Below are positions 6,042 through 59,806 of a DNA stretch of 64,000 bases, piece by piece (position 1 is the stretch's first letter; each line of letters starts with the position of its first letter). The notes under the pieces were generated by a model. The model saw nothing but the letters and a program-made list of their open reading frames with translations. It did no database searches and was not told where the DNA came from. Location of the stretch: positions 2,752 through 66,751 of the forward strand of contig JAFZBE010000067.1 of the NCBI GenBank assembly GCA_017561935.1, written 5' to 3'. The translations under genes and the position numbers were made by a program. The DNA is from Bacteroidales bacterium. GTDB lineage: Bacteria; Bacteroidota; Bacteroidia; Bacteroidales; UBA3663.

Positions 6042-7388
6042 ATGAAATCCCTCAAGTTATTCATCGGTTTGGCACTGCTTGTATGCTCTTGTGGCGGTTC
6101 CGACAATCAGGCTTCGAACGGAACACCAGATGAGACCACTCAGCTGAGTGACAACGAACTGCTCGACCTTGTGCAGAAGCAGTGCCTGAACTACATGTGG
6201 GAGGGCGCTGATCCGACATCGGGACTGGCCTACGAGCGTATCCACCTGGATGGCATCTATCCGTCGAACGACAAGATGACGATCACCACAGGTGGCTCGG
6301 GCTTTGGCGTGGCCGGACTCGTCGTCGGCATGGAGCGCGGCTGGATCAGTCGTGCCGAGGGCGTAGCCAGACTGGCACGTATCGTCGATTATCTGGCGAA
6401 GGCCGACCGCTACCATGGCGTGTGGTCACACTGGATGGACGGCCCTTCAGGCAAGACCATTCCTTTCGGCACGAAGGACAATGGCGGCGATCTTGTCGAG
6501 TCGTGTTTTCTGATGCAAAGCTTGCTTTGTGCTCGCCAATACCTCAAGTCTGACGTCGAGATCGAGGCCGTCGTCATCAACAAGATCAACGAACTGTGGC
6601 GTGCGATGGAGTTCGACTGGTACACCCGTGGTGGCCAGCACGTCCTCTATTGGCATTGGAGTCCCGACTATGCCTGGGAGATGAACTTCCCCCTCGAAGG
6701 CTACAACGAGTGCCTCATCACCTATATCCTCGCAGCATCCAGCCCCACCCATACCGTGCCGGCTGAATGCTATCACGAGGGATGGGCACGCAGCGGAGGT
6801 ATCAAGAGCGATGCTGCTCCCTACGGTTATCCGCTCGACGTGAAGCACAACGGTGCCGAGGCCAATGGTGGACCGCTCTTCTGGGCACATTACAGCTGGA
6901 TCGGCCTTTGTCCGAAGGGTCTCAAGGACAAGTATGCCGACTATTGGCACGTCACGGCTAACCATGCCCTTGCCAACTATGCCTACTGCGTCGATAATCC
7001 CAAGCATTACAAGGGCTACAGCAAGGATTGCTGGGGTCTCACCGCCAGCTATTCTCCCGATGGCTATGCCGCCCATGCACCCAATCAGGATCTCGGTGTT
7101 ATTACTCCCACGGCTGCTCTGTCGAGCTTCCCCTATACTCCCGAACAGAGTATGGCAGCTCTGCGTTATTTCCATTCGAAGGAGAGCTTCCTCTGGGGCA
7201 AATATGGCCCGTATGATGCCTTCTCACTCGACCCGACGTGGACACTGCCACGTTACCTCGCCATCGACCAGCTCACCATCGCACCCATGATCGAAAATTA
7301 TCGTTCAGGCCTGCTCTGGCGTCTCTTCATGAGTTGTCCCGAGGTGCAGGAGGGATTGACGAAGCTGGGGTTCTCAATTAACAATTAA
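6042..7388 (+). CDS. Secreted lipoprotein glycoside hydrolase, GH144-like (glucoamylase-family / putative endo-beta-1,2-glucanase)
   Basis: Start moved to ATG 6042 (MKSLKLFIGLALLVCSCGG lipoprotein signal); the track start at 5892 would overlap susD by 148 nt. The body (LNYMWEGADPTSGLAYERI, TTGGSGFGVAGLVVGMERGWISR, YHGVWSHWMDG) resembles Bacteroidota proteins annotated as glucoamylase family, now classed GH144. This assignment is from memory and was not searched. Confidence 0.6.
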   Translation: MKSLKLFIGLALLVCSCGGSDNQASNGTPDETTQLSDNELLDLVQKQCLNYMWEGADPTSGLAYERIHLDGIYPSNDKMTITTGGSGFGVAGLVVGMERGWISRAEGVARLARIVDYLAKADRYHGVWSHWMDGPSGKTIPFGTKDNGGDLVESCFLMQSLLCARQYLKSDVEIEAVVINKINELWRAMEFDWYTRGGQHVLYWHWSPDYAWEMNFPLEGYNECLITYILAASSPTHTVPAECYHEGWARSGGIKSDAAPYGYPLDVKHNGAEANGGPLFWAHYSWIGLCPKGLKDKYADYWHVTANHALANYAYCVDNPKHYKGYSKDCWGLTASYSPDGYAAHAPNQDLGVITPTAALSSFPYTPEQSMAALRYFHSKESFLWGKYGPYDAFSLDPTWTLPRYLAIDQLTIAPMIENYRSGLLWRLFMSCPEVQEGLTKLGFSINN

Positions 7389-7411
7389 CAAAAAACAATA
7401 TATAATTGGCT

Positions 7412-10596: not shown

Positions 10597-13572
10597 ATGA
10601 ACATTTCTAAATTGCACCAGCTGGCGCGCAGTCTGCTCCTCATTTGCTTCATCCTGCTGGGATGGAGCGGATGTGTTGTGTCGTATGCCATTACCATCAC
10701 CGGACGCGTAGCTTCGGCAACCGACGACACACCACTGGCCGGCACCACCATCCGTCTTATGACTCTCCCCGACTCGACCTTCGTTGTCGGCACATTTACT
10801 GACCGCAACGGCAACTTCACTCTTCATTCTTCACGACTGGATGGTTTGCTCAAGGAACGCAAGGCGCATCAAAAGGTGCTCGTGCATTTCACGTACATAG
10901 GTTTCCAAGAAACCCTAAAGGTATTTACGCTACATCACCGGCAGAAGTCGTTCGCGCTCGGCGACGTGTTTATGCAGGAAGAACATCGCCTGTTGGGTGA
11001 GACCGTCGTCTCGGCCACCCCTCCCCCAATGGTGATTCGCGAGGACACTATCGAATACTACGCCAGCAGCTACCAACTTGAGCCCGATGCTACGGCCGAA
11101 GACCTCTTGAAACGACTGGCAGGCATCGAAGTGGATGCCAACGGAAGCATTACAGCCCAGGGCGAGACGGTGACGAAAGTATATGTGGATGGGAAGGAAT
11201 TCTTCAGTTCGAATATCCAGGCCACGACCAAGAACCTCACCGCCGACATGTTCGAGTCGGTGCAGGTGGTGGACATGAAGACCGAGGAGAGCCGTCTCAC
11301 AGGTATCGACAACGGCGAACGCGAGAAGGTGATCAACTTCAAGCTGAAGCCGAGGATGAGGCGCGGATATTTCGGCAACGCTGCCGGTGCATGGGGTGAC
11401 GGCTCGGGCATTGACGACCGTTTCGAAACGAAAGGCATGGCGGGCTACTTCAGAGGCAACAACCAGAATGCACTGGTGGCAAATGCGAACAATACGAACA
11501 ACACGGGCTTCGGCGACTTGGGCGAAAAGGTCATGCGCAACTCGACCATGCGCGGCAACCGAAACAGCGGACGACGCGGTGAAGGTCTGAACACCTCGTG
11601 GAGCATGGGCCTGAACCTTAATTACGACAAGGGTAACCGACTGCGCGACGAGAACACTCCCTTCGCCATCGGCGGCGATGTGCTCTATGGCGGGGAGAAA
11701 CAGAGCGAGAAGACATCGACGCACCGCATCAACTATCTGAAGTCGGGCAACACCGGCACCGACACGGAGCAGACAGGCGACAACAAGGGACAGAACGTCC
11801 AACTCGACTTCAAGTACGAAAAGACCTGGGGCAAGGTAGCCGATGGAGAACATCGCCTGCAAATTAGCCCGGAACTGGCTTTCAACAGATCGGAAACCGA
11901 TGAACATTCGACCAGCAGGAACTACCACCTGGATCCGAATGCGGAGGATGAGATCACGGCACTGCCTTCGACCTACATCAGCCAGACCCAACGCTCGAGC
12001 AACATAAAGCAGCAGGGCTTGAGCTATGAACTCGGTCTCACCTACTCTTACGCCAAGAAGATCTCACGAGGGCGACGACGCAGCAGCATCCGTGTCAGCC
12101 TGAATGGACGACACAATGACGGAGACCACTACACCCAATCGTTCACTAGTTACGACAATCTGCTCGTCAACGACCTGAGTCTCCTGAACGACACCACCAT
12201 CAACCAATGGCAGGAAGAACGTTCGAACTCCCTCACCTATCGCATTCGACTTACCCATGTGGAACCCATCAACGAACATCAGTTCATCGAAGTGGGTGCA
12301 ACGGGCAGTTTCACACGCAACACCCAACGCCAGCTCTACCACTTCTGGGACGAAGGTCTCGGACAATATGCCGACTCGATAAACGGCAGGTCGAACATCG
12401 ACTACAGCACCGATTCGCGTACACAGCAAAACAGCTACACCCTGTCGGCCAGCTATCGCCACGTCACAGAGCGTGTCAATAGCTCGATAGGCATTGACCT
12501 GCTGCCCAACACACAGAACTATACCGACTACTACGACCACTCTCGCGATTACAAACGTTCTTACATGAACTTTGCGCCACGGGTGGAGTACCGCTACAAC
12601 TGGAACCGTAGGAAGAACCTGCGCATCACACTGAACGGCAGGACGACACAACCTTCAATCAACCAACTGCAGGCACGCAAGAACCAGACGTCGGCCACCC
12701 ATGTCACATTGGGCAACCAAGACCTTGGGCCGGCTTTCCAAACCAACTTCCAGGCACGCTTCCGTGCCAACAGCCAAGAGACGGGACGTACGCTGGAGGC
12801 TTCGATCAACGCTACTGCACAGTTCAATACCCTGGCCACCAAACGCTGGTACAGCGCCGACCTCCGGACTGACACGACGATGACAGTTAACATCGACGGA
12901 CTGGGTTCGTGGAACGTGCAAAGCGAATTCAGGGGGTCGTTCCCCTTTGCCGACAACCAATGGTATGTAACCACACAGACGACACTGGGCTACCGCGAGA
13001 ACATCGGTTATGCAAACCTGAAGAGCACCGATACACAGGTGAACCATATACACAACGTTACGGCAGACGAACGAACGGGTATCGCCTACCGTAACGACTG
13101 GCTCAACGTGGAGCTACATGGACATTACAGTCTCTCATATAGCGAGGCGACAATCGTCACCTCGGGAAGTTTGGGTACTACACACCAGTTCGGCGTGCGA
13201 AGCAACTTATCAGCCCGTCTGCCGTGGAACCTGAGTTGTTCGACAAGCATCGACTACACGGGACGACGCGGCTATTCGGCTGGCTTGACGCGCAACCAAA
13301 CCATCTGGAACGCACAACTCTCACGTTCGTTCCTGAAACGCAAGAACCTTTCGGCCTTCGTGAAGGTGTTCGACATCCTGCATCAGAAGACAAGCATCAG
13401 GCGCAGCATCAGTGCCACGTCAATCACCGACCGCGAGAGCACAACACTCAGACAATATTTCCTGCTGGGATGCAGTATGAAGTTTAATCAGGGTGCGAGG
13501 GGTTTGAGGGGTTCGAGGGGTTTGAAGGGTTCGAGAGGTCCGAAGGGTTCAAGGGAACACGAACAACATTGA
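10597..13572 (+). CDS. Outer-membrane beta-barrel protein with carboxypeptidase-regulatory-like N-domain (TonB-dependent-receptor-like, OMP_b-brl_3 type) carrying a repeat-derived C-terminal tail
   Basis: 991 aa. N-terminal ITITGRVASATDDTPLAGTTIRL Cna/CarboxypepD_reg-like domain. Plug-like ETVVSATPPP...VYVDGKEFF. Long Asn/Tyr/Thr-rich barrel. A barrel-type end ...LLGCSMKF is followed by 28 extra residues, NQGARGLRGSRGLKGSRGPKGSREHEQH. Confidence 0.85.
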   Translation: MNISKLHQLARSLLLICFILLGWSGCVVSYAITITGRVASATDDTPLAGTTIRLMTLPDSTFVVGTFTDRNGNFTLHSSRLDGLLKERKAHQKVLVHFTYIGFQETLKVFTLHHRQKSFALGDVFMQEEHRLLGETVVSATPPPMVIREDTIEYYASSYQLEPDATAEDLLKRLAGIEVDANGSITAQGETVTKVYVDGKEFFSSNIQATTKNLTADMFESVQVVDMKTEESRLTGIDNGEREKVINFKLKPRMRRGYFGNAAGAWGDGSGIDDRFETKGMAGYFRGNNQNALVANANNTNNTGFGDLGEKVMRNSTMRGNRNSGRRGEGLNTSWSMGLNLNYDKGNRLRDENTPFAIGGDVLYGGEKQSEKTSTHRINYLKSGNTGTDTEQTGDNKGQNVQLDFKYEKTWGKVADGEHRLQISPELAFNRSETDEHSTSRNYHLDPNAEDEITALPSTYISQTQRSSNIKQQGLSYELGLTYSYAKKISRGRRRSSIRVSLNGRHNDGDHYTQSFTSYDNLLVNDLSLLNDTTINQWQEERSNSLTYRIRLTHVEPINEHQFIEVGATGSFTRNTQRQLYHFWDEGLGQYADSINGRSNIDYSTDSRTQQNSYTLSASYRHVTERVNSSIGIDLLPNTQNYTDYYDHSRDYKRSYMNFAPRVEYRYNWNRRKNLRITLNGRTTQPSINQLQARKNQTSATHVTLGNQDLGPAFQTNFQARFRANSQETGRTLEASINATAQFNTLATKRWYSADLRTDTTMTVNIDGLGSWNVQSEFRGSFPFADNQWYVTTQTTLGYRENIGYANLKSTDTQVNHIHNVTADERTGIAYRNDWLNVELHGHYSLSYSEATIVTSGSLGTTHQFGVRSNLSARLPWNLSCSTSIDYTGRRGYSAGLTRNQTIWNAQLSRSFLKRKNLSAFVKVFDILHQKTSIRRSISATSITDRESTTLRQYFLLGCSMKFNQGARGLRGSRGLKGSRGPKGSREHEQH
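13492..13554 (+). repeat. 9-bp-period mini-array, locus A (7 units, GGTTYGARG family)
   Basis: Units: GGTGCGAGG GGTTTGAGG GGTTCGAGG GGTTTGAAG GGTTCGAGA GGTCCGAAG GGTTCAAGG. Translated as seven Gly-X-Y triplets at the 3' end of the OMP gene. Confidence 0.9.
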
Positions 13573-14569: not shown

Positions 14570-15817
14570 TCACTCATATTCGAAGATTCCATTCTCGGTA
14601 TGGAGCGTGACCTTTGCACCCTCCTTTCGTTCCTCGACATGACCAATGATTTGCGCTTCGATGTTGAAGCTGTGTGCGATGTCAATCACCGTCTGGGCAT
14701 GCTCGGCGGGGAGATAAATCTCGAGACGATGTCCCATATTAAATACCTTATACATCTCGGACCAGTCGGTACCCGACTGCTCGTGAATGGTGCGGAACAA
14801 TGGAGGAATGGGGAAAAGATTGTCCTTGATGACATGCAAATCCTTTATGAAGTGGAGCACCTTGGTCTGTGCGCCGCCGGAACAATGAACCATGCCGTGG
14901 AGGGAGGAGGAGAGGTTTGAGGAGTTTGAAAGGTTCGAGGGGTTTGAGGGGTTTGAGGGGTTTGAAAGGTTCGAGAGGTTTGAGCGGAATACGTCAAGGA
15001 TCTTTTTGACAACAGGAGCATAGGTGCGAGTAGGGCTCAGAACAAGCCTGCCGGCATCAAGGGGGCTGCCTTCGACGGCATCGGTGAGTTTCAGCTGTCC
15101 ACTATAGACGAGTTCCTCGGGCACCGCATGATCGTATGACTCGGGATATTTCTGGGCCAAATACTTGCCAAAGACATCATGACGTGCTGAAGTCAAGCCA
15201 TTAGAACCCATCCCTCCGTTGTATTCTTTCTCGTAGGTGGCCTGTCCGTAGCTGGCAAGACCGACAATGACGTCGCCTGCTGCGATGTTGGCATTGTCGA
15301 TCACATCGCTGCGCTTCATACGACATGTAACCGTAGAATCGACGATGATGGTGCGTGCCAAATCACCGATATCGGCCGTCTCGCCACCTGTACCATACAC
15401 ACCTATGCCCATCTCACGCAGTTCGGCCATCAGTTCGTCGTTGCCATTGATGATGGCACTGATCACCTCACCCGGGATGAGCATCTTGTTGCGACCAATG
15501 GTTGACGAGACGAGGATGTTATCGACAGCACCTACGCAGATAAGGTCGTCGATATTCATGATGAGAGAATCCTGGGCGATGCCTTTCCAAACCGAGAGGT
15601 CGCCGGTTTCCTTCCAATACATATAGGCCAATGATGTCTTGGTACCTGCTCCATCAGCATGCATGATGTTGCAATACTCGGGATCTCCACCCAGAATATC
15701 GGGAATGATTTTGCAGAATGCCTGTGGATAGAGGCCCTTGTCGATGTTCTTGATGGCGTTGTGCACATCTTCCTTGCTGGCACTCACGCCGCGCATCATA
15801 TATCTTTGATCTGCCAT
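14570..15817 (-). CDS. purM: Phosphoribosylformylglycinamidine cyclo-ligase (AIR synthase, Bacteroidota long form) with an in-frame repeat insertion
   Basis: MADQRYMMRGVSASKEDVHNAIKNIDKGLYPQAFCKIIPDILGGDPEYCNIMHADGAGTK ... HGMVHCSGGAQTKVLHF. The conserved flanks are interrupted by a 27-aa tract, SNLSNLSNPSNPSNPSNLSNSSNLSSS. Confidence 0.92.
   Translation of the reverse strand: MADQRYMMRGVSASKEDVHNAIKNIDKGLYPQAFCKIIPDILGGDPEYCNIMHADGAGTKTSLAYMYWKETGDLSVWKGIAQDSLIMNIDDLICVGAVDNILVSSTIGRNKMLIPGEVISAIINGNDELMAELREMGIGVYGTGGETADIGDLARTIIVDSTVTCRMKRSDVIDNANIAAGDVIVGLASYGQATYEKEYNGGMGSNGLTSARHDVFGKYLAQKYPESYDHAVPEELVYSGQLKLTDAVEGSPLDAGRLVLSPTRTYAPVVKKILDVFRSNLSNLSNPSNPSNPSNLSNSSNLSSSLHGMVHCSGGAQTKVLHFIKDLHVIKDNLFPIPPLFRTIHEQSGTDWSEMYKVFNMGHRLEIYLPAEHAQTVIDIAHSFNIEAQIIGHVEERKEGAKVTLHTENGIFEYE
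14905..14985 (+). repeat. 9-bp-period mini-array, locus B (about 9 units) inside purM
   Basis: Units: GGTTTGAGG AGTTTGAAA GGTTCGAGG GGTTTGAGG GGTTTGAGG GGTTTGAAA GGTTCGAGA GGTTTGAGC, preceded by a degenerate GGAGGAGAG. The gene reads the C-rich strand, giving (S-N-L/P) repeats. Confidence 0.9.
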
Positions 15818-24358: not shown

Positions 24359-25885
24359 ATGAACGCAACATTGGTATTGGGCGTCATCGTCCTTTACTTC
24401 CTTATGGTTTTCGGTGTAAGTTGGTGGACCACGCGTCGGCGTGACCGCGACACCGAAACCTTCTATCGCGGCGACCGCAAGAGCCCCTGGTGGGTGGTAG
24501 CCATCGCTATGATTGGCACATCCATCTCGGGTGTGACCTACGTGAGTGTGCCCGGCATGGTTGAAGCAAAGCAGATGAGCTACATACAAATGGTCATCGG
24601 CTTTGTTTGTGGTTACTTTGCCGTGGCCTACATCCTGCTCCCCCTTTACTATCGCCTCGGACTCTCGAGCATATACGTGTATCTCGAGCAACGATACGGA
24701 CGGTTCGCCCACAAGACGGGAGCCTCGTTCTTCCTCTTGAGCAAGTATCTGGGTTGCGCCGTCAGGATGTATCTCACTGCTGTGGTTCTGCAACTCGTTC
24801 TCTTCGATCAATTAGGTGTTCCCTTTGGCCTCTCGGTAGCATGCATCATGCTCATCGTCTGGATCTACTCGTTCCGTGGTGGCGTAAAGACACTGGTATG
24901 GACCGACCTTCTGCAGACACTCTGCCTACTATCCGCCATGATAGGATTTGTGATTTGCATCAGTTCAGCGATGGGCCTTGACTTTTCAGGGCTGTATAGC
25001 ACCATCACCGAAAGTCCGATGTCAAGGGTATGGTTCTTCGATGATGCGAATGACACGCGCTACTTCTGGAAACAGTTCCTCGGCGGCATGTTCACCACCA
25101 TCGCCATGACAGGTCTTGACCAGGACATGATGCAGAAGAACCTTTCCTGTAAATCGTTGAAAGAAGCGCAGAAGAACATGGTCTCCTACGGCTTCGGTTT
25201 CCTTCCCGTCAACATCATCTTCCTCTCTCTAGGAATATTATTATATATGTACGCGCGAGAAGTGGGTGTCGATCGAACAGGTGACGAGCTCTTCCCCTAC
25301 CTTGCCACAGGCATCAATCCGACGACGGGCCAACCCTTCCTTCCGCTCATCGTGAGCGTGCTTTTCGTGTTAGGTCTAGTAGCAGCCGCTTTCTCGTCGG
25401 CGGGATCGGCGGTTACCGCTTTGACGACAGCCATCATGGTCGATTTTCTGCGTAAGACGCCCAGCGAGGAAGGTTTGAGGGGTTCGAAGGGTTCGAGAGG
25501 TTCGAAGGGTTTGAGGAGTTCGATAGAGGGCCAACGTTTCTGGGTTCACATCATCAATTCCATCATGATGGGATTCATGATCTACCTGTTCCATCTGCTG
25601 GCTTCCGGCTCAGTCATTAACGCAGTCTATGTGGTAGCATCCTATACATACGGCCCACTCATCGGCCTTTTCTTCTTCGGCATGTTCACGAAGTGCAAGG
25701 TGAAGGATGGATGGTGGATACCGGCCATCTGCATCGCCTCGCCGCTTCTCTGCTTTTTCCTCGATCAGCATTCAGAAGCATGGTTCAATGGATATAAGAT
25801 CGGCTATGAGATGCTGCTAATCAATGGTGCACTGACAGCCCTCGGACTCTTTCTCGCTTCTCTCCACTTCCGCAAGTGTAGTTAA
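24359..25885 (+). CDS. Sodium:solute symporter (SSF) family transporter with an in-frame repeat insertion
   Basis: About 13 hydrophobic helices. SSF-like N-terminus (FYRGDRKSPWWVVAIAMIGTSISGVTYVSVPG). The loop insertion EEGLRGSKGSRGSKGLRSSIEG is encoded by repeat locus C. Confidence 0.88.
   Translation: MNATLVLGVIVLYFLMVFGVSWWTTRRRDRDTETFYRGDRKSPWWVVAIAMIGTSISGVTYVSVPGMVEAKQMSYIQMVIGFVCGYFAVAYILLPLYYRLGLSSIYVYLEQRYGRFAHKTGASFFLLSKYLGCAVRMYLTAVVLQLVLFDQLGVPFGLSVACIMLIVWIYSFRGGVKTLVWTDLLQTLCLLSAMIGFVICISSAMGLDFSGLYSTITESPMSRVWFFDDANDTRYFWKQFLGGMFTTIAMTGLDQDMMQKNLSCKSLKEAQKNMVSYGFGFLPVNIIFLSLGILLYMYAREVGVDRTGDELFPYLATGINPTTGQPFLPLIVSVLFVLGLVAAAFSSAGSAVTALTTAIMVDFLRKTPSEEGLRGSKGSRGSKGLRSSIEGQRFWVHIINSIMMGFMIYLFHLLASGSVINAVYVVASYTYGPLIGLFFFGMFTKCKVKDGWWIPAICIASPLLCFFLDQHSEAWFNGYKIGYEMLLINGALTALGLFLASLHFRKCS
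25472..25525 (+). repeat. 9-bp-period mini-array, locus C (6 units) inside the symporter gene
   Basis: Units: GGTTTGAGG GGTTCGAAG GGTTCGAGA GGTTCGAAG GGTTTGAGG AGTTCGATA. Confidence 0.9.
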
Positions 25886-25947: not shown

Positions 25948-25988
25948 TGTCGTTGTGATTTACCATTAAATCCCTTTTATATTATGGG

Positions 25989-26061
<73 letters not shown>

Positions 26062-27336: not shown

Positions 27337-27882
27337 TTAAGCCTCGGTAGGGGCATCAGTGGCAGCGGCAGCCTCAACAGCAGCGGCAGCCTCAGCAGCA
27401 GCGGCAGCTGCCTTAGCAGCAGCCTCAGCCTTCTTGGCTGCCAATGCTTCAGCCTTGGCATTCTTCACTGCAACCTCAGCGTTGGCAATCTCCTTCTCCT
27501 TCTTGGCAGCTTCGGCTGCGAGACCAGAGATCTTAGTGGTGATCTTAGCCTCCTTGGCCTTCATCCAAGCGTCAAACTTGGCTTTTGCCTGCTCTTCGGT
27601 GAGAGCGCCCTTCTTCACACCACCATTGAGGTGCTTCATCAGAAGGACTCCCTTGTAGGAAAGAATACGACTAGCGGTGAGCGTGGGCTGTGCACCAGTC
27701 TCTACCCAATAAAGGGCGCGTTCGAAATTGAGTTGAATAGTAGCAGGGTTGGTGTTGGGATTGTAAGTACCGATCTTCTCAATATACTTACCATCACGTG
27801 GCGCTCTGCTATCTGCGACTACGATGCTATATACAGCGTAGTCCTTGTGACCATGTCGTGCAAGACGGATCTTTGTAGCCAT
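27337..27882 (-). CDS. rpsP: 30S ribosomal protein S16 with long Ala/Lys/Glu-rich C-terminal extension
   Basis: [67 protein letters not shown], followed by a low-complexity tail of about 95 aa. Confidence 0.95.
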
Positions 27883-51511: not shown

Positions 51512-52849
51512 CTACTTCACAAACAGTTCCTGCACAGCCTCGATTTTCTCATTACGACATATCACTACCACTTGGTCGCCAGGCTGGATATGTGTCTGGC
51601 CTGTGACTGTCTGTCCCTGTCCGTTGCGTACCATGCCACCTATGGTGATACCCTTGGGCAGACGCAACTCCATCACCGGTTTCAGTGTGATCGACGAGTT
51701 GTTCTGGGCCGTGAGGTCCACCACCTCGGCATCAATCAGGCTGAAACACTTCGCATTCGTCTTGTCCGACTCCAGCAGAATCTGATAGATGGATGCTGCC
51801 GTGAGCGATTTCTTGTTGACAGTCGAACCGATATTGAGGTTTTGGGCCATGGTGACCTGCTCCACATCGCTCACTTCGACGATGCTCTTCCCCACGCCCA
51901 TCTTCTTGGCAGTCAGACAAGCCAGGATATTTGAATCTGAATCCGGACCGACAGCCACAAACGCATCGTGAACGTTAATATTCAGGTCGTTCAGTGTCTC
52001 GATGTAGTTCTTCATCCCTCTCACCACCTTCACGTTGGGCAGCTTGTCCATCACATGATTGGCATTGTCAGCATCATCTTCAATGAAGACCACGTCATAA
52101 TGCTTCTTCAAATAATAACAGAGCTGTATGCCCAGGCGATTACCACCCAAAATGATGATGCGGTGCAGGTCGCGCTCCTTCTTTCCGCAGGTAAAGCGCA
52201 CCACGTCGGCCTTTTGTGGCAAGGTGACGAAATACACCAGATCCTCGGCCTTGACGATGTCATTGCCGTTGGGAATGATCAGATCGACATCGCGCCTGAT
52301 GGCCGCCACATGGAACGAGTCGTGATGCATGCGTCCGATGTCCATGAGCTTCCTTCCCACAATGGGGGCACCTTCGCGCACCTTCACAGCCAGCAGAAGC
52401 AGGCAGCCATCGCAGAGCGAGATGCTCTGTCGCGCCCACGGACGGGCTATGGCATCGGCAATGAACTGACCTCCCAGCATCTCGGGATAGACAAGGTCGC
52501 TGATGCCGATGCGCTTGTAGAAGTCCGCCGAGTCGGTCTTCTGTGTCTCGTAATTGTCCACACGGGCCATCGTACGACGAGCACCCAGGTTCGCTGCGAG
52601 GATGCAAGAATGGATGTTCGTGCTCTCATCGGGCGTCACGGCAATGAACAGGTTACACTCGGGCACACCAGCTTCTTTCAGTGCATGGATGCTGGTGGGC
52701 TTGCCGACCATGGTCATCAGGTTCATGAACGTCAGCTGAGCGATGCGGTTCATATCCGAATCCATCAGCACGACGTCATGATTCTCCTTCGCCAATAGCT
52801 TGGCCAGATGTGTGCCCACTTCCTGGGCACCGGCGATAACTATCTTCAT
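51512..52849 (-). CDS. trkA: Trk system potassium uptake protein TrkA (two RCK domains)
   Basis: MKIVIAGAQEVGTHLAKLL and a second Rossmann segment IIILGGNRLGIQL. 445 aa. Confidence 0.92.
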   Translation of the reverse strand: MKIVIAGAQEVGTHLAKLLAKENHDVVLMDSDMNRIAQLTFMNLMTMVGKPTSIHALKEAGVPECNLFIAVTPDESTNIHSCILAANLGARRTMARVDNYETQKTDSADFYKRIGISDLVYPEMLGGQFIADAIARPWARQSISLCDGCLLLLAVKVREGAPIVGRKLMDIGRMHHDSFHVAAIRRDVDLIIPNGNDIVKAEDLVYFVTLPQKADVVRFTCGKKERDLHRIIILGGNRLGIQLCYYLKKHYDVVFIEDDADNANHVMDKLPNVKVVRGMKNYIETLNDLNINVHDAFVAVGPDSDSNILACLTAKKMGVGKSIVEVSDVEQVTMAQNLNIGSTVNKKSLTAASIYQILLESDKTNAKCFSLIDAEVVDLTAQNNSSITLKPVMELRLPKGITIGGMVRNGQGQTVTGQTHIQPGDQVVVICRNEKIEAVQELFVK

Positions 52850-52857
52850 TGCCCTAA

Positions 52858-52911
52858 TCTCTGATTTCTCTGAATTCTCCGATTACTTGGAGTTCTCCGA
52901 TTATTCCGAAT
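52858..52911 (+). repeat. 9-bp-period mini-array, locus F (diverged TCTCYGATT type, 6 units) in the dxs-trkA spacer
   Basis: Units: TCTCTGATT TCTCTGAAT TCTCCGATT ACTTGGAGT TCTCCGATT ATTCCGAAT. The array overlaps the dxs stop codon (52901-52903). Confidence 0.7.
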
Positions 52912-54814
52912 CTTCCTCCAAAACCTTCGCAATGCTCGAGGCATCAATGCCGCAGAGTCGATAGAGTTCGCTCACTGAGCCTTGTGAGATGAACTCGTCG
53001 GGAATGCCCAGGCAGCGGATCTTGCCTTCGTACCCCTGACGGTTGGCTTCCTCCAAAATGGCACTGCCGAAACCGCCAGCCAAAGCACCATCCTCGACGG
53101 TGACAACGCGCGTGTACCTATTAAATATTTGCGCGAGGAGTTCGGTGTCGAGTGGCTTGCAGAACACCATATCATAATGGGCCACGTCACGCTCTACTCT
53201 ATCAATGGCCTTGGCTACCTCGATGCCTATCGGGCCGAAGGAAAGCACAGCCGTGTTTCCGCTGCCTTCACGCAAGCAATAACCACGACCTATCTCCACA
53301 GCCTCAAGGACGTTCTTCCAGTTCGGGTTGCCATCGGCATCATTGCCGCAGATGCTGCCGCGCCCGCGAGGATATCGGATCATGAACGGACCATCAGCCA
53401 CATCCACAGCCGTCACCATCAGTCTGCGCAGCCAATGTTCATCAATGGGCGAGCACACCGTCATGCCAGGTATGGCGCGGAAATAGGGAATATCCAGTAC
53501 ACCGTGGTGCGTCGGTCCGTCGGCACCCACCAGTCCCGCCCTATCCAGGCAGAACACCACATGCAGATGCTGGAGCGACACATCGTTCACCACCTGGTCG
53601 ATGGCACGTTGCATGAAGGTCGAGTAGATGTTGCAGAACGGCAGCATGCCCTCCTTGGCCAGTCCGCCGCTGAAAGTCACGGCGTGTTCCTCGGCAATAC
53701 CCACGTCGAACGTGCGGTCGGGGAATCGATTCATCATATACGTCATCGAACAGCCTGTTGGCATGGCAGGTGTCACACCCACGATTCGCTCGTTCTTCTC
53801 GGCCAGTTCCACCAATGTCATGCCGAAGACGTCCTGGAACTTCGACGGCAGTCCCTCCGTATTCTCCTTGATGCGTTCACCCGTGGCAGGGTCAAACTTG
53901 CCTGGAGCGTGCCAGATGGTGGCTTGCTCTTCGGCCTGCTTGAAACCCTTGCCCTTGATGGTGCACACGTGCAGCATCTTCGGTCCACCCAGATCCTTGA
54001 TCTTGCGCAAAGTCTTTACGAGCGACACCACATTGTGGCCATCCACGGGTCCGAAGTATCGGATGTCGAGGCCCTCGAAGATGTTCTGTCGGCGAGAAAA
54101 GAGCGACTTTACGCTGTTGGCGAAGCGAATCAAGGCGCGACGCAGCCTATCGCTGATCAGGCCATGGCGTTTCAGCGCGTTATATGCCTTGTAGCGCAGC
54201 AGGTTATAGCGTTGGCTGGTAGTAATACGCGTCAAATAGTGGTAGAGGGCTCCCACATTCTGATCGATGGCCATCTGGTTGTCGTTGAGCAGGATGAGCA
54301 GATCGTTCGGATGCGAGGAGGCATTGTTCAAGCCCTCAAAAGCCATGCCTCCGCTGATCGAAGCGTCACCGATTACGGCCACCACCTTGCGCTTGCTGCC
54401 TTCCAGCTTATTGGCCACAGCCATACCCAAGGCTGCCGAGATGCTGTTCGAGGCATGACCCGTTGAGAACGTGTCGTACTCGCTCTCCTTTGGAGTGGGG
54501 AAGCCGCTCAATCCACCCAGCTGGCGCAGAGTATTGAACTTCTCGCGACGACCTGTTAGTATCTTGTGCGCGTAAGCCTGGTGACCCACATCCCACACTA
54601 ACCGGTCGTCGGGTGTGTCAAACACATAATGCAGCGCCACGATGATCTCGATGGCACCCAAGCTCGAAGCGAAGTGTCCCGGATGGACGCTCACCTGTTC
54701 GATGATGAACTGACGTAAAGCCTGACATACATCCGGCAACTGCTCAATCGGCAATTGGCGCAAGTCGGCTGGACTATCAATCCCATCCAGTATGTTCTTA
54801 TATTTCTCTTCCAA
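52901..54814 (-). CDS. dxs: 1-deoxy-D-xylulose-5-phosphate synthase
   Basis: [26 protein letters not shown] and [16 protein letters not shown]. The only start-like codon after the upstream in-frame stop is TTG at 54814. Confidence 0.93.
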
Positions 54815-54828
54815 AGTATATCAATTTT

Positions 54829-54891
54829 CTTAACCCCTCTTAACCTTTCGAACCCTTCGAACCTATCGAACTCTTCGAACCCCTCATCCTT
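54829..54891 (-). repeat. 9-bp-period mini-array, locus D (7 units; G-rich strand is the minus strand)
   Basis: Plus strand reads CTTAACCCC TCTTAACCT TTCGAACCC TTCGAACCT ATCGAACTC TTCGAACCC CTCATCCTT. It covers the last 16 codons and the stop of the wbqC-like gene and ends 15 nt before the dxs start. Confidence 0.9.
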
Positions 54892-55511
54892 TCAAGGATG
54901 AGTATGGCCTCGGGACCCATGTTGAATAGCAAATCTAAAATACTCACATCAGCCATAAACGTCTGACGTCCACCCACACAGGCAACCTGATAATATGGGG
55001 GCACTTGCATGTGACCGAAATGCAGCGAGGGGGCATCGCTTAGGAAGACACCGTTTGGCGCAACGCAATCGAGTGGTCCCATCCATTGTTCCGAATAGCG
55101 GACTTTCGGCGAAAAGCCTATTTCGTGGCAGATGTGCTGGCGCAACGCCTCATTCATTCCGAAGAGTGTACCATCATGACCGTGAAGAAATGTCTCGCGC
55201 AGATCGTCGATGTAGTATTCGTAGAAAGGCGAATTGCCATAGTACGTTGCCCATGAGTAGAGGTGTTGTCGCTGCCAGTCCCCGTGTTTGCTCAAACGCA
55301 CCTCACGGATAGGCATCTTCAGTTTGTTGCCTTTCTCGACGTTCACCGAGAGCGTCTGTGGACCCTGGTCGGTGGCTATCGTGCAGCGGGTACGGAGGGT
55401 CTGTTTCGTGTAGTGCTCGTTCGCCTCCAACACCACCTCGTCGGCCGCATAGAGTATGACGTAGTACGAGATGGGGGCCAGATAGGCAGTAGGTAGAACA
55501 ATCGGCGGCAT
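54840..55511 (-). CDS. WbqC-family protein with repeat-derived C-terminal tail
   Basis: Start set at ATG 55511 (MPPIVLPTAYLAPISYYVILYAADEVVLEANEHYTKQTLRTRCTIATDQGPQTLSVNVEKG), overlapping the lepB stop by 1 nt. The track's 352-aa ORF extends through lepB in another frame. The tail is MRGSKSSIGSKGSKG. Confidence 0.85.
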   Translation of the reverse strand: MPPIVLPTAYLAPISYYVILYAADEVVLEANEHYTKQTLRTRCTIATDQGPQTLSVNVEKGNKLKMPIREVRLSKHGDWQRQHLYSWATYYGNSPFYEYYIDDLRETFLHGHDGTLFGMNEALRQHICHEIGFSPKVRYSEQWMGPLDCVAPNGVFLSDAPSLHFGHMQVPPYYQVACVGGRQTFMADVSILDLLFNMGPEAILILERMRGSKSSIGSKGSKG

Positions 55512-56992
55512 CAGAGTCCCTTCACTTTCTTGAACCAGCGGTCCTTGCGCCATTCGCCCGTCTCCTGGTTGATCGAGAACCATACAAAGAGCGGAGTGCC
55601 CACGATATGGTCTTCGGGCACGAAGCCCCAGTAGCGCGAGTCGAGCGAGTTGTCGCGGTTGTCGCCCATCATCCAGTAGTAGTCGTAGCCAAAAGTGAAC
55701 TCCGAAGCCTCCTGTCCGTTGAGCTCGTACTTGTCCTTGCCGAGGCGTGTAAGCACGTTGCCCTGGCCGTCGCCTGTGGCCTGATTGGGCTCGTAGGCAG
55801 TGATGCAGCGACCATAGAGCTTCACGTTCTCGTCGGTGAGCTTGATGGTCTTGCCCTTCTGCGGAATCCAAAGCGGGCCAAAGTTCGAACCCGTCCAATC
55901 CGATAGTTCATCCTGCGGATACACCGAACCGGGAGTCTCCTGATATGGGCTGTCCTTGATCCACTCCACTTTGCCCGACTTCTCCAGTCGCTCCTTCGCC
56001 TCACTCGTCAGGTTAACAAAGTAGAGGGGAGCATAGCGTCCCGTGATGCTATCGGGACTGATCTCGTAATAATGATAGAACGAAACATCCTGAATCGGCT
56101 GTACATCAGGGCCTACCGAACCGTTGCTGCTGCCCTTGGTATAAATGCCCATCCGTTTCCACTCGCGTTCGGTAATGATGCCGCCCTTCGTCAACACCAC
56201 ATATCGATGCTGCAGGTACTGTGGATCCTTCAGCTCCTTGCCGTCGATCAGCACCTTGCGGTCGATGATCTGCAGCGTCTCGCCCGGCATTCCGATCAGA
56301 CGCTTCACATAGTTCTCGCGGCGATCGACAGGGCGGGTGACGATTTCTCCAAAGGTTTTTTTGTCGTTCCACACCTTGTCACGCCCGTACATGTTGCAGA
56401 GCGTGTAGTAATCAGGGTTCTCGCAATTCACACACACGGTGTCGCCATTCGGATAGTTGAACACCACGATGTCGTAGCGCTCCATCTTTGTCAGTCCTGG
56501 CATGCGCCTATAGTTCACCTGAGGATGGGTAATGTAGCTCTTGCCCAAACGTGTCGAGCCAATCGATACCGTATGCTGGAACAAGGGCAACGACAAGGGA
56601 GTCATCGGCACACGAGGTCCGTAGTGGTATTTCGAGACGAGCAGGTAATCGCCCGCCATCATTGTCTTCTCCAGCGAAGTGGTAGGAATCTGGAAGTTCT
56701 GGAAGAAGAAGTTCTGCAGCACCCACACAGCGGCTAGGGCGAAGACGATGGCATCGACCCATGACATCGTGCTGCGCAGGAATCCATTCTTAATGCTCTT
56801 GTACCAGTCCCATTTGATGAATCGAGTCCAATACACATCCACCACAAATGGGAGGACGAGGAAGGGCACGAACGAGTTCATCCACAGGGCAAAGAGCACA
56901 ATTGCAATAATGCCGACCACCAGCCACACCTTGTCGCTCCTGGTCATCTTGCGGCCGAAACCGCGTATTTCCTTTTCTGTATTTTCAGCCAT
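55511..56992 (-). CDS. lepB: Signal peptidase I (large Bacteroidota type)
   Basis: SLEKTMMAGDYLLVSKYHYG (Ser box), VKRLIGMPGE (Lys box) and GDNRDNSLDSRYWGFVPEDHIVG. Confidence 0.93.
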   Translation of the reverse strand: MAENTEKEIRGFGRKMTRSDKVWLVVGIIAIVLFALWMNSFVPFLVLPFVVDVYWTRFIKWDWYKSIKNGFLRSTMSWVDAIVFALAAVWVLQNFFFQNFQIPTTSLEKTMMAGDYLLVSKYHYGPRVPMTPLSLPLFQHTVSIGSTRLGKSYITHPQVNYRRMPGLTKMERYDIVVFNYPNGDTVCVNCENPDYYTLCNMYGRDKVWNDKKTFGEIVTRPVDRRENYVKRLIGMPGETLQIIDRKVLIDGKELKDPQYLQHRYVVLTKGGIITEREWKRMGIYTKGSSNGSVGPDVQPIQDVSFYHYYEISPDSITGRYAPLYFVNLTSEAKERLEKSGKVEWIKDSPYQETPGSVYPQDELSDWTGSNFGPLWIPQKGKTIKLTDENVKLYGRCITAYEPNQATGDGQGNVLTRLGKDKYELNGQEASEFTFGYDYYWMMGDNRDNSLDSRYWGFVPEDHIVGTPLFVWFSINQETGEWRKDRWFKKVKGL

Positions 56993-58062: not shown

Positions 58063-59376
58063 ATGGAGGAACTCATGTATTTCGTTTGGCAGCAGCGTCT
58101 CTTCCTCACTATAGAGACGCCCGACCATCAGCCCCTCGACATTCTCCACCCCGGACTACGCAACTACGATGCCGGACCCGACTTTTTCAACGCAAAGGTC
58201 AAGGAGGATGGCATCGTGTGGGCTGGGAATGTGGAGATGCACGTCAAGGCATCCGACTGGTATCGCCATCATCATCAAGACGATCCCAACTACGATTCGG
58301 TGATACTGCACGTCGTCATGGACCCCGACACCGAAGTTAGGCTACGAAATGGCACATTGGTCAAGACCGTCGTGATGCATATTCCCGATGATCTGATGGA
58401 ACGCTACCGGCAGCTCTGCAGCTGTACGTCTGCCCCTCTCCTACCAGGTCAAGTCCCCAGCTATTCCTGCATCTCCTGCTCAAATCGGCTCGATCAGATA
58501 CCCTCTGTCGTACTTCACGATTGGATTACAGCTCTCTGCACCCAGCGGATGATCGAGAAACTGCAGCGTGTGCGTGACCTCGTTGAAGGACAACTCAAGG
58601 CATGGCCCGAAGCGTTCTATGTGGTGCTAACACGTAGCCTCGGCACGGGTGTCAACAGCGACCAGATGGAACGATTGGCTCGCAGTCTGCCCTACAGTTG
58701 TCTGTTGCATCATAAGGATAACTTTCTGCAGATTCAAGCCCTTCTGTTTGGACAGGCAGGCCTTCTGCAGATGCAGGATGCGGAATCAAAAGAAGCAAAA
58801 GACCAACAGGAATGGCGACTGATGCAACGCGAATACGCTTTTTTGAGGCAGAAATTCAGCCTTTCTCCCCTCAACGGAACTTATTGGAAGATGGGACGTG
58901 TGCGTCCTCCCGCACAGCCTGAAGCCCGTTTACGTGCCTTGGCCAAACTCATTTGGACACATCAGGACCTCTTCGATGAAGTTCTCGAAGCCAACAGCTT
59001 GGAGCAGATGGAAAAGATTTTCAGTGGAAAGGGTATCGGACGGCAAACGGTGCGCAGCCTCATTATCAATGCGGTTGTTCCCCTCCTACTCGCCTATGCC
59101 CAATGGCAAGGCGATGACGAGCGCTGCGAAAAGGCACTCAATCTGCTCGAAGAACTTCCTCCTGAAAGGAATCGATACATCAACCAATGGATTGAGGCAG
59201 GCATCACCGTGAAGTCCGCCATGGACACACAGGCTTTGCTCCATCTCTTCAAGAACTACTGCCAGCCCCACAAATGCTTGCGCTGCCGTATCGGTTGCTG
59301 GCTGCTAAAAAAGGCCGACATATCCCCTTCGAGCGGCGAAAACCCGCTTCAAGTCTCAGATGAGATTCCCTTTTGA
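58063..59376 (+). CDS. DUF2851 family protein
   Basis: MEELMYFVWQQRLFLTIETPDHQPLDILHPGLRNYDAGPDFFNAKVKEDGIVWAGNVEMHVKASDWYRHHH, as in the conserved DUF2851 N-terminus. A C-terminal CxxC (CLRCRIGC) is present. Confidence 0.85.
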   Translation: MEELMYFVWQQRLFLTIETPDHQPLDILHPGLRNYDAGPDFFNAKVKEDGIVWAGNVEMHVKASDWYRHHHQDDPNYDSVILHVVMDPDTEVRLRNGTLVKTVVMHIPDDLMERYRQLCSCTSAPLLPGQVPSYSCISCSNRLDQIPSVVLHDWITALCTQRMIEKLQRVRDLVEGQLKAWPEAFYVVLTRSLGTGVNSDQMERLARSLPYSCLLHHKDNFLQIQALLFGQAGLLQMQDAESKEAKDQQEWRLMQREYAFLRQKFSLSPLNGTYWKMGRVRPPAQPEARLRALAKLIWTHQDLFDEVLEANSLEQMEKIFSGKGIGRQTVRSLIINAVVPLLLAYAQWQGDDERCEKALNLLEELPPERNRYINQWIEAGITVKSAMDTQALLHLFKNYCQPHKCLRCRIGCWLLKKADISPSSGENPLQVSDEIPF

Positions 59377-59806
59377 GGGAAACGTCCAATTTACGATTGA
59401 GAATTGGACACACGCGATTGGAAACGTCCAATTTACGATTGAGAATTGGACACACACGATCGGAAACGTCCAATTTACGATTGAGAATTGGACACACACG
59501 ATCAGAAACGTCCAATTTACGATCGAGAATTGGACGCACGCGATCGGAAACGTCCAATTTACGATTGAGAATTGGACGCATGCGATCGGAAACGTCCAAT
59601 TTACGATTGGGAATTGGACACACGCGATTGGAAACGTCCAATTTACGATTGAGAATTGGACGCATGCGATTGGAAACGCCCAATTTACGATCAGGAATTG
59701 GACGCGCGCAATCGGAAACGTCCATTTTACGATTGAGAATTGGACGCATGCGATTTACGATAGAACATTCCCCTTTCTAAGTGAGCCCTTCGTCCTCGGA
59801 AATTGA
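59360..59806 (+). CDS. Candidate 148-aa protein made of nine 14-residue repeats (GNVQFTIENWTHAI); coding status uncertain
   Basis: ORF MRFPFE(GNVQFTIENWTHAI)x9...YDRTFPFLSEPFVLGN. In this frame, 4 of the 6 unit polymorphisms shared by two or more units are synonymous third-position changes. However, three frames are open across the array, and most variable sites are CpG-context transitions, which confounds the signal. Confidence 0.25.
   Translation: MRFPFEGNVQFTIENWTHAIGNVQFTIENWTHTIGNVQFTIENWTHTIRNVQFTIENWTHAIGNVQFTIENWTHAIGNVQFTIGNWTHAIGNVQFTIENWTHAIGNAQFTIRNWTRAIGNVHFTIENWTHAIYDRTFPFLSEPFVLGN
59379..59756 (+). repeat. Tandem array, 9 x 42 bp; each unit has a 9-bp inverted repeat and an alternating purine-pyrimidine tract
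   Basis: Unit: GAAACGTCCAATTTACGATTGAGAATTGGACRCRYGCGATYG. Unit starts are at 59379, 59421, 59463, 59505, 59547, 59589, 59631, 59673 and 59715. CGTCCAATT and AATTGGACG are reverse complements separated by 10 nt. There are no unique spacers. Confidence 0.95.

Follow-up and report, generated by a model that had tools for sequence, protein, structure and literature searches.

How does a tandem repeat come to be translated inside the gene of a conserved enzyme, and is it particular to that gene? The question is raised by a 64,000-nucleotide (nt) stretch of contig JAFZBE010000067.1 from a rumen Bacteroidales bacterium, hereafter the window, in which a long-form PurM-like protein of the AIR synthase family carries 27 extra residues encoded by an array of the nonamer GGTTYGARR. 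We think it likely that this insert is a tolerated, slippage-prone array of a dispersed 9-bp repeat family, whose arrays selection has narrowed down to permissive loops and reading frames. As a kind of DNA it falls in a known class: it is a coding long simple sequence repeat (LSSR) array, from a dispersed single-motif family of short tandem repeats (STRs), in an STR-rich phylum.

Both the sequence and the list of open reading frames (ORFs) read ...VVKKILDVFR / SNLSNLSNPSNPSNPSNLSNSSNLSSS / LHGMVHCSGGAQTK... across the site, in exact agreement with an earlier note on this DNA, which had reported an in-frame insert of 27 residues with intact flanks. By codon arithmetic the insert spans window positions 14903-14983 (81 bp); the array of that note is there, 2 nt away from the 14905-14985 it gave. 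The peptide is (S-N-L/P)n, translated from the C-rich strand, and its junctions are bridged by the peptides …ILDVFRSNLSNL… and …NLSSSLHGMVH…. The count of nine 9-bp units was approximately right: a unit scan of the + strand found 8 units with at most 2 mismatches from GGTTYGARR, plus a degenerate one (GGAGGAGGA, translated SSS). Tandem Repeats Finder (TRF) reported period 9 at 14910-14984 (score 87, with 8.3 copies at 78% matches); a better fit than period 9 came from periods 18 (83%) and 36 (92% matches, score 129), and the array therefore has a higher-order structure beyond its 9-bp unit. It has all the marks of an in-frame tandem repeat, namely head-to-tail units, a unit length that is a multiple of 3, an intact ORF, and copy-number polymorphism among close relatives. 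The array is real and no assembly artefact, because the identical PurM protein was found on contigs of two samples from a ruminant gut metagenome set; allelic arrays are also present in ENA, NCBI and JGI assemblies.

The array in purM is not a one-off expansion. Three further arrays of the same nonamer lie in the window (Table 1), and the 16-mer GGTTYGARRGGTTYGA, allowing at most 1 mismatch, has 19 matches in these 64 kb against 0.02 expected, a number attained by 0 of 100 shuffles. TRF found no nonamer other than GGTTYGARR at several loci of the window. All four host ORFs possess Pfam domains. Three of them have the G-rich strand as coding strand, in the frame Gly-[Ser/Leu]-[Arg/Lys]; purM has the C-rich one, giving Ser-Asn-Pro/Leu. 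With the same nonamer in three other window genes and at many loci elsewhere, the picture of a clean, isolated expansion in a housekeeping enzyme that had first been drawn of this locus does not hold.

Table 1. Positions of the insert, its host gene and the other GGTTYGARR arrays of the window, followed by genomes with several matching loci
Feature or genome	Position in window, or number of loci	Strand	Context or basis
Host gene of the insert: long-form PurM-like, AIR synthase family, 415 aa	14570..15817	-	ORF; Pfam AIRS and AIRS_C; match to PDB 3mdo
27 inserted codons, residues 279-305, SNLSNLSNPSNPSNPSNLSNSSNLSSS	14903..14983	-	C-rich-strand reading of the nonamer array
G-rich strand of the purM array, 8 units	14914..14985	+	At most 2 mismatches to GGTTYGARR
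Second GGTTYGARR array, 7 units	13492..13554	+	C-terminal tail GARGLRGSRGLKGSRGPKGSR... of outer-membrane beta-barrel ORF 10597..13572
Third GGTTYGARR array, 6 units	25472..25525	+	Inside SSF symporter ORF 24359..25885, read GLRGSKGSRGSKGLRSSI
Fourth GGTTYGARR array, 4-5 units	54842..54882	- (G-rich)	C-terminal tail ...RGSKSSIGSKGSKG of WbqC-like ORF 54840..55898
Saprospiraceae MAG-361	At least 7 loci with GGTTYGARR match		Collection scan
Chitinophagales UWPOB_CHIT8	At least 5 loci with GGTTYGARR match		Collection scan
Bacteroidales RGIG6006	At least 5 loci with GGTTYGARR match		Collection scan
Reindeer_1_mag_244	At least 5 loci with GGTTYGARR match		Collection scan
SGB_1238, near relative of the window organism, source of L118	At least 5 loci with GGTTYGARR match		Collection scan
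Acidobacteriota MFD05521.bin.2.215	At least 5 loci with GGTTYGARR match		Collection scan

When 185,579 species genomes were scanned for 2.5 units of the GGTTYGARR pattern, at least 114 stretches matched. Among the matches listed, many metagenome-assembled genomes (MAGs) had at least 3-7 loci each, and a cultured isolate, Prevotella sp. P3-122 (L104), had one 3-unit match. The unit is multi-locus in MAGs of rumen Bacteroidales, Chitinophagia and Acidobacteriota. Only multi-locus genomes carry weight here, because two scrambled nonamers of the same composition matched a viral collection equally well (6 and 27 loci vs 6 for the real GGTTYGARR); isolated cross-phylum matches, for example in Streptomyces, were rejected as significant, since scrambled nonamers form arrays as often.

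We analysed 157 arrays of 2-23 units each. Both strands carry them, all stop-free frames are represented (SNP, QTP/RTF, KPF/KPL, GSK/GLK, GFE, VRR), and their settings range from the interior of long ORFs and the ends of ORFs to DNA with short ORFs that is probably non-coding. The family is not predominantly intergenic: 83 of the 157 stand in stop-free spans of at least 900 nt, where 58 are internal, 21 near the 5' end and 4 near the stop. Translation is from the C-rich strand in 63 of these 83, and 40 use the S-N-P frame vs ~14 expected under even frame use. This bias of frame and location fits the survival of arrays encoding hydrophilic, disorder-friendly peptides in permissive loops and tails.

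The SSF (sodium:solute) symporter array occupies a loop that is variable in all orthologues. In the closest clade the loop holds G-[SL]-[RK] arrays of varying copy number (proteins of 487-517 aa), and in orthologues that are ~90% identical the array gives way to an unrelated loop, similar in length. The L122 symporter (77% identity) has GGTTYGARR in the same loop in the opposite orientation (…TPQTPQT…), an independent acquisition. The outer-membrane protein (OMP) of the closest relative, L165 (~93% nt identity in this gene), ends in an unrelated Gly/Arg-rich tail of 94 nt where the window has an 80-nt array; the breakpoints lie just past the PPIase stop codon and after …KFNQ. Two observations on these sites may be added. 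In a further symporter homologue, P0175, from another lineage, the loop holds another repeat, NLKTSKPN (8 residues, i.e. 24 bp, ~5 copies), and this loop therefore recurrently accepts unrelated tandem repeats. After the conserved …KFNQ of the OMP, each relative (L165, L117, L118) has a different Gly/Arg-rich low-complexity tail; in the window (13492-13572) the nonamer supplies it, translated as Gly-X-Arg/Lys, and it may be that selection acts on a Gly/Arg-rich tail as such.

An insert at exactly the purM site was found in 44 of the 120 best homologues, making 45 carriers with the window protein. There are 16 distinct alleles of 13-28 aa, mostly differing by 3-aa steps, the window allele (27 aa) being among the longest and some others decayed (e.g. 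SPSDATPLNPSEPLLTPQNRSLRD); at the DNA level they share TCR-AAC-CYY as their building unit. Among proteins at least 98.5% identical in the core, 291 pairs differ in insert length, as expected of the hotspot of frame-preserving length variation that the earlier note had predicted. The same note expected orthologues from Bacteroides and Prevotella to lack the insert. Most orthologues do lack it, and so do both solved structures, but the closest relatives carry one of variable length; the shared orthologue linker that it had set against its own reading thus exists in part, with non-carriers in the same species-level cluster.

The carrier allele class likely had a single old origin, because its members share flanking changes and lie closest to one another in synonymous divergence (pS). 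A protein neighbour-joining tree with bootstrap did not resolve carrier monophyly, there being just ~5% divergence, and we therefore relied on pS. On this measure the carrier lineages (window; L168; the L118/L119/L120 group) come out as mutually nearest in purM, at ~0.5, vs 0.56-0.75 between carriers and the non-carriers L117, L163, L164 and L167. The empty site reads ATG CGT CAN GAG ATT and offers no convincing proto-unit. All carriers have ATG changed to TTC (M to F) and ATT to CTC (I to L) in the flanks, so that filled and empty alleles are related by a small replacement and not by a clean insertion.

The relative L166 has the ancestral-type site without insert (…SMRQE/IHG…) and is as near to L118 and L120 as those are to each other (pS 0.19 in purM, 0.12-0.19 in the neighbouring PPIase gene); the difference is limited to about +/-30 nt. 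One protein cluster at 97.5% core identity or more holds 42 carriers and 19 non-carriers, some pairs of which are 99.7% identical outside the site. Within a species-level population, then, the insert varies both in length and in presence, and the simplest explanation is either that allele classes were exchanged in short homologous patches or that the polymorphism is old. A second 'species cluster' holding both states at the protein level was not confirmed by DNA (pS 0.57-0.75).

What does the host protein make of such an insert? The 415-aa protein is above the Pfam gathering scores for AIRS (PF00586, 39.6 bits, cut-off 24) and AIRS_C (PF02769, 34.9 bits, cut-off 23.1), and matches two solved long-form proteins, 3kiz and the 'putative PurM' 3mdo (hmmer E=6e-208; 74% identity over the aligned columns in Foldseek). 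It is of the divergent long-form type, named 'putative PurM' or 'AIR synthase related protein' in the sources. Its AIR synthetase activity is presumed from family membership, and to call it an essential PurM, as had been done, was to go by inference: against the NCBIfam purM equivalog TIGR00878 it scores 88.4 bits, below the cut-off of 236.35. Strong purifying selection acts on the gene with the insert present or absent, to judge from a dN/dS (the ratio of non-synonymous to synonymous change) of 0.03-0.09 in comparisons of carriers with one another and with non-carriers.

The two crystal structures pass the insertion site without insert (…LRSQ/IHGMVHCSGG…), the insertion point falling between the equivalents of 3mdo residues 281 and 282. 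In 176 of 178 long-form PurMs without insert, taken from Bacteroidales and Cytophagales, SPTRTY and HCSGG stand 19 residues apart; the site is therefore normally of fixed length. We modelled the window protein with AlphaFold2 from a diverse 87-sequence alignment with added Cytophagales homologues, discarding a 28-sequence version with a predicted local distance difference test (pLDDT) of 46. The model (pLDDT 84, predicted template-modelling score 0.87) matches 3mdo with a target-normalised template-modelling (TM) score of 0.98 (rmsd, root-mean-square deviation, 1.1-1.4 A) and the classical PurMs 1cli, 2v9y and 9k00 with 0.75-0.82. Its sole long stretch with pLDDT <50, residues 281-303, falls within the insert, which the model places between a confident helix (267-279) and a confident strand (308-311), the latter bearing the conserved HCSGG motif. 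We read the insert as a disordered loop in this model, in line with the low-complexity loop proposed from the sequence. H311 of the window protein probably corresponds by alignment to H239 of the P. abyssi AIR synthetase, the residue mutated in 9k03, so that the low-confidence stretch would stop ~5 residues before an active-site-proximal motif. Two PurM homologues contain long internal duplications of PurM sequence: P0001 (548 aa) repeats residues ~95-275 and P0067 (436 aa) repeats a 47-residue C-domain block, which reflects either tandem duplication of gene segments or errors of assembly.

In the reading that we favour, the array would have been set up at the purM site in an ancestor common to the window lineage and the relatives nearest to it. 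It would be translated as a low-complexity Ser/Asn/Pro/Leu stretch because the unit equals three codons and its C-rich strand is stop-free in every frame, and the predicted loop between the helix and the HCSGG strand would leave the fold, and presumably the activity, intact. Replication slippage or unequal recombination would lengthen and shorten the array, 9 bp at a time and in blocks of 18/36 bp, as its 9-, 18- and 36-bp periodicities and the allelic series suggest; point mutations would degrade it; and alleles with and without it would coexist, probably swapped by homologous recombination. Genome-wide, selection would purge arrays from intolerant places and frames, the survivors standing in loops and tails and mostly in the S-N-P frame. 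As to new loci, our best guess is that they would be seeded when replication or repair switches template, by way of microhomology, from an array already in place, the sole hints being head-to-head inverted pairs of arrays and the replacement-type junctions.

Several points weigh against this reading. Slippage alone does not explain why GGTTYGARR is multi-locus in both Bacteroidota and Acidobacteriota. The filled and empty alleles compared at purM, the OMP tail and the SSF loop differ by the replacement of a short stretch with altered flanks, with no clean insertion, and none of these comparisons yielded a convincing microhomology or target duplication. The still-repetitive purM array has been kept across a pS of ~0.5, which could reflect selection for the loop over neutrality. 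That the insert is exposed at the surface is suggested by low pLDDT and secondary-structure context in the model, and it sits so near H311 that an altered PurM activity is possible. Finally, there is no second purM within the 64-kb window, the rest of the genome lying outside our view.

Could the arrays be seeded by a dedicated process? One that is sequence-specific and horizontally transmissible, and that sets up GGTTYGARR arrays at new chromosomal sites, is in our view rather unlikely; such a process might use a polymerase or reverse-transcriptase-like activity so far unrecognised, for instance, or DNA repair that copies from a fixed template. If true, it would explain the multi-locus unit in Bacteroidales, Chitinophagia and Acidobacteriota, as well as the replaced stretches with altered flanks and the head-to-head inverted pairs.

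It is also unlikely that the arrays are miniature mobile elements, inserted by a transposase or similar enzyme and keeping the frame within genes in the style of a MITE (miniature inverted-repeat transposable element) or a Rickettsia palindromic element (RPE). The arrays recur many times in a genome, in either orientation and in frame inside conserved genes, the SSF loop gained the nonamer independently in the opposite orientation, and presence/absence is polymorphic inside one species; all this would be expected of such elements, but the arrays do not look like them. They have no terminal inverted repeats; no conserved flanks, just a fading G-rich signal from degenerate edge units; and no fixed nonamer phase at their ragged ends. 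A single array forms no Watson-Crick structure (minimum free energy 0 kcal/mol for the purM array on both strands), which led us to reject a hairpin or palindrome for single arrays. The number of units varies continuously between 2 and 23, and the contrast between filled and empty alleles is one of replacement, without a clear target-site duplication in purM; 'YTCCGC' on both sides of the array in L119 and L120 was judged to be chance, being absent in the window and L118. Because there are no conserved flanks, no fixed phase and no structure in single arrays, GGTTYGARR arrays are not elements of the MITE, RPE or REP (repetitive extragenic palindromic) kind. A G-quadruplex was rejected as a general property as well: the motif (at least 4 runs of G3+, loops of 1-7 nt) is present in the OMP-tail array and not in purM, SSF or WbqC, and folding energies with a G-quadruplex option were no better than those of shuffles.

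We give equally little chance to the loop being adaptive, i.e. a Ser/Asn-rich segment selected to modify PurM (its regulation, interactions or solubility) with a length that tunes function. Such a role would agree with the persistence of the carrier class, with its shared flank substitutions, over lineages at pS ~0.5, with the nearness of the insert to the HCSGG motif, and with the over-representation of the S-N-P frame among coding arrays. However, carriers and non-carriers coexist at 99.7% core identity, the sequence and length of the insert vary freely to the point that the repeat has decayed to non-repetitive in some alleles, and 176 of the 178 other long-form PurMs do without it. Elsewhere GGTTYGARR is translated in other frames and also turns up where ORFs are short and the DNA is probably non-coding; what all arrays share is therefore a DNA unit and not a peptide.

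A one-off local expansion, in which a short purM sequence was duplicated by slippage and grew in place, unrelated to the rest of the genome, is very unlikely. The 18/36-bp higher-order structure is typical of amplification in place, and the allelic length series and the lack of element-like ends point the same way, but the three other arrays and 19 matches in the window, the GGTTYGARR arrays at many loci per genome elsewhere and an empty site with no convincing proto-unit contradict it. Least probable of all is an artefact, either an assembly error or a non-functional purM copy: short-read metagenome assemblies can mis-assemble repeats and the NCBIfam score is under its cut-off, but the sequence recurs identically in two samples and as allelic arrays in independent projects, a single sequencing read is longer than the 81-bp array, the ORF, which is intact, has a dN/dS of 0.03-0.09, and the low score belongs to a divergent long-form family with crystal structures and the same Pfam assignment.

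How does this family compare with repeats already described? In-frame variable-number tandem repeats (VNTRs) and LSSRs within bacterial coding sequences have reportedly been covered by Zhou, Aertsen and Michiels in 2014. The purM array resembles them in its head-to-tail units and in a unit length that is a multiple of three, so that changes in copy number never shift the frame; like them it is strain-polymorphic, and such repeats are thought to be driven by slippage. They are sporadically distributed among bacteria, as is the case here (Mrazek et al. 2007, as summarised in PMC4679880). The classic cases are locus-specific and often lie in surface or contingency genes, whereas GGTTYGARR is one unit at many unrelated loci (a metabolic enzyme, a transporter loop, tails).

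Inserts of another kind are said to come from Rickettsia, where Ogata et al. reportedly described in 2000 palindromic elements in frame inside genes. The likeness is that repetitive DNA persists in conserved genes by keeping the frame and adds a peptide that the fold tolerates; RPEs and MITEs are however defined elements of 100-150 bp with a palindromic or inverted-repeat structure, while GGTTYGARR arrays lack both this structure and fixed ends, and differ in how many 9-bp units they contain.

A parallel in dispersal comes from the cyanobacterial short tandemly repeated repetitive (STRR) sequences and from the TAACTGA repeats, which occur in Beggiatoaceae, Cyanobacteria and some Bacteroidetes and have spread without a known mechanism (PMC4679880). 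There too one short tandem motif lies at many loci in scattered lineages, with no flanking element structure, no known dispersal mechanism and hosts rich in such families, and GGTTYGARR does occupy many unlinked loci of one genome as these repeats do. The difference lies in the unit: 7-bp units are largely intergenic for that reason, and TAACTGA has forward stop codons, whereas the 9-bp GGTTYGARR is open in 5-6 frames and so is also genic and translated. A 2025 survey found an exceptionally high STR density in Bacteroidota, coding sequence included, prokaryotes being generally STR-depleted (PMC12699852); the GGTTYGARR family, its multi-locus nature and its effects on particular proteins are not in it. 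We found no description in the literature of the GGTTYGARR repeat, its peptides, or nonamer repeats in Prevotella/Bacteroidetes.

For PurM, these results mean that a conserved enzyme bears a variable low-complexity stretch of 13-28 residues some 5 residues from a predicted active-site motif, and that natural alleles with and without it within one species constitute a natural experiment on the tolerance of a fold to insertion. More generally, a nonamer family that stands in coding sequence in every open frame is a route to linkers, tails and loop-length diversity in the STR-rich Bacteroidota. The arrays are usable as strain markers, and they cause noise in annotation and clustering through length variants and extended C-termini such as the OMP tail. 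Being abundant in rumen MAGs and matched in the cultured Prevotella sp. P3-122, the family may be experimentally approachable.

Other short tandem arrays, with periods of 7-11, are unusually frequent at the array loci (~800 TRF rows in ~1 Mb), and host genomes have several multi-locus STR families each, such as a GGACGAT-type heptamer in a Chitinophagales MAG or the AAGGGATTTT and AATTAAC repeats of rumen Bacteroidales. The latter is also present in the window at 7375-7399, as a heptamer array CAATTAA (canonical AACAATT), and recurs in rumen Bacteroidales/Prevotellaceae (L112 5812-5845, L115 6222-6261, L025 7674-7706, L035 3031-3064). Another 9/18-bp array (TCTCCGATT / TCTCCGATTACTCGGAAT) lies at 52858-52911, between the gene 51512..52849 and the dxs-like 52901..54814, and similar repeats of the form CGAATTATCGAAT / AATCCGATT occupy the PPIase-OMP intergenic region of relatives (L120, L168, downstream of the PPIase gene); the TCTCCGATT/TCTCCGATTACTCGGAAT-type repeats may be a second dispersed repeat family. 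At 59378-59754, directly downstream of ORF 58063..59376, TRF found a 42-bp unit repeated 9 times (score 600, 90% matches), with CCAATT...AATTGG as its internal inverted repeat; several frames of either strand are open here, and the array is therefore probably non-coding. Overlapping 6-, 9-, 12-, 18- and 21-bp repeats (CAGCGG / GCAGCGGCAGCCTCAACA) at 27357-27431 have no relation to the nonamer family.

Two resemblances of the nonamer were set aside. A link to the tRNA T-loop (GGTTCGA) was rejected, the sole tRNA of the window (25987-26061, besides which Rfam matched nothing there) lying ~460 bp off the third array with coding sequence between. The G-strand frame is Gly-X-Y as in collagen, but for 4-7 triplets only and with PurM using the opposite strand, and we regard this as coincidence.

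Among the matched contigs, L011, L067 and L071 (QFQQ01, labelled as a Citrobacter freundii MAG) carry nonamer arrays at 45-47% GC; the GC content of C. freundii is about 52%, and the contigs may be mis-binned. Head-to-head inverted pairs, in which a G-rich array meets its own reverse complement within 1-90 nt and so forms a long potential hairpin, were seen at L030 236-445, L018 658-761, L058 49-257, L101 7289-7481 and L011 4763-4966, in MAGs labelled Saprospiraceae, Bifidobacterium, Acidobacteriota and Citrobacter.

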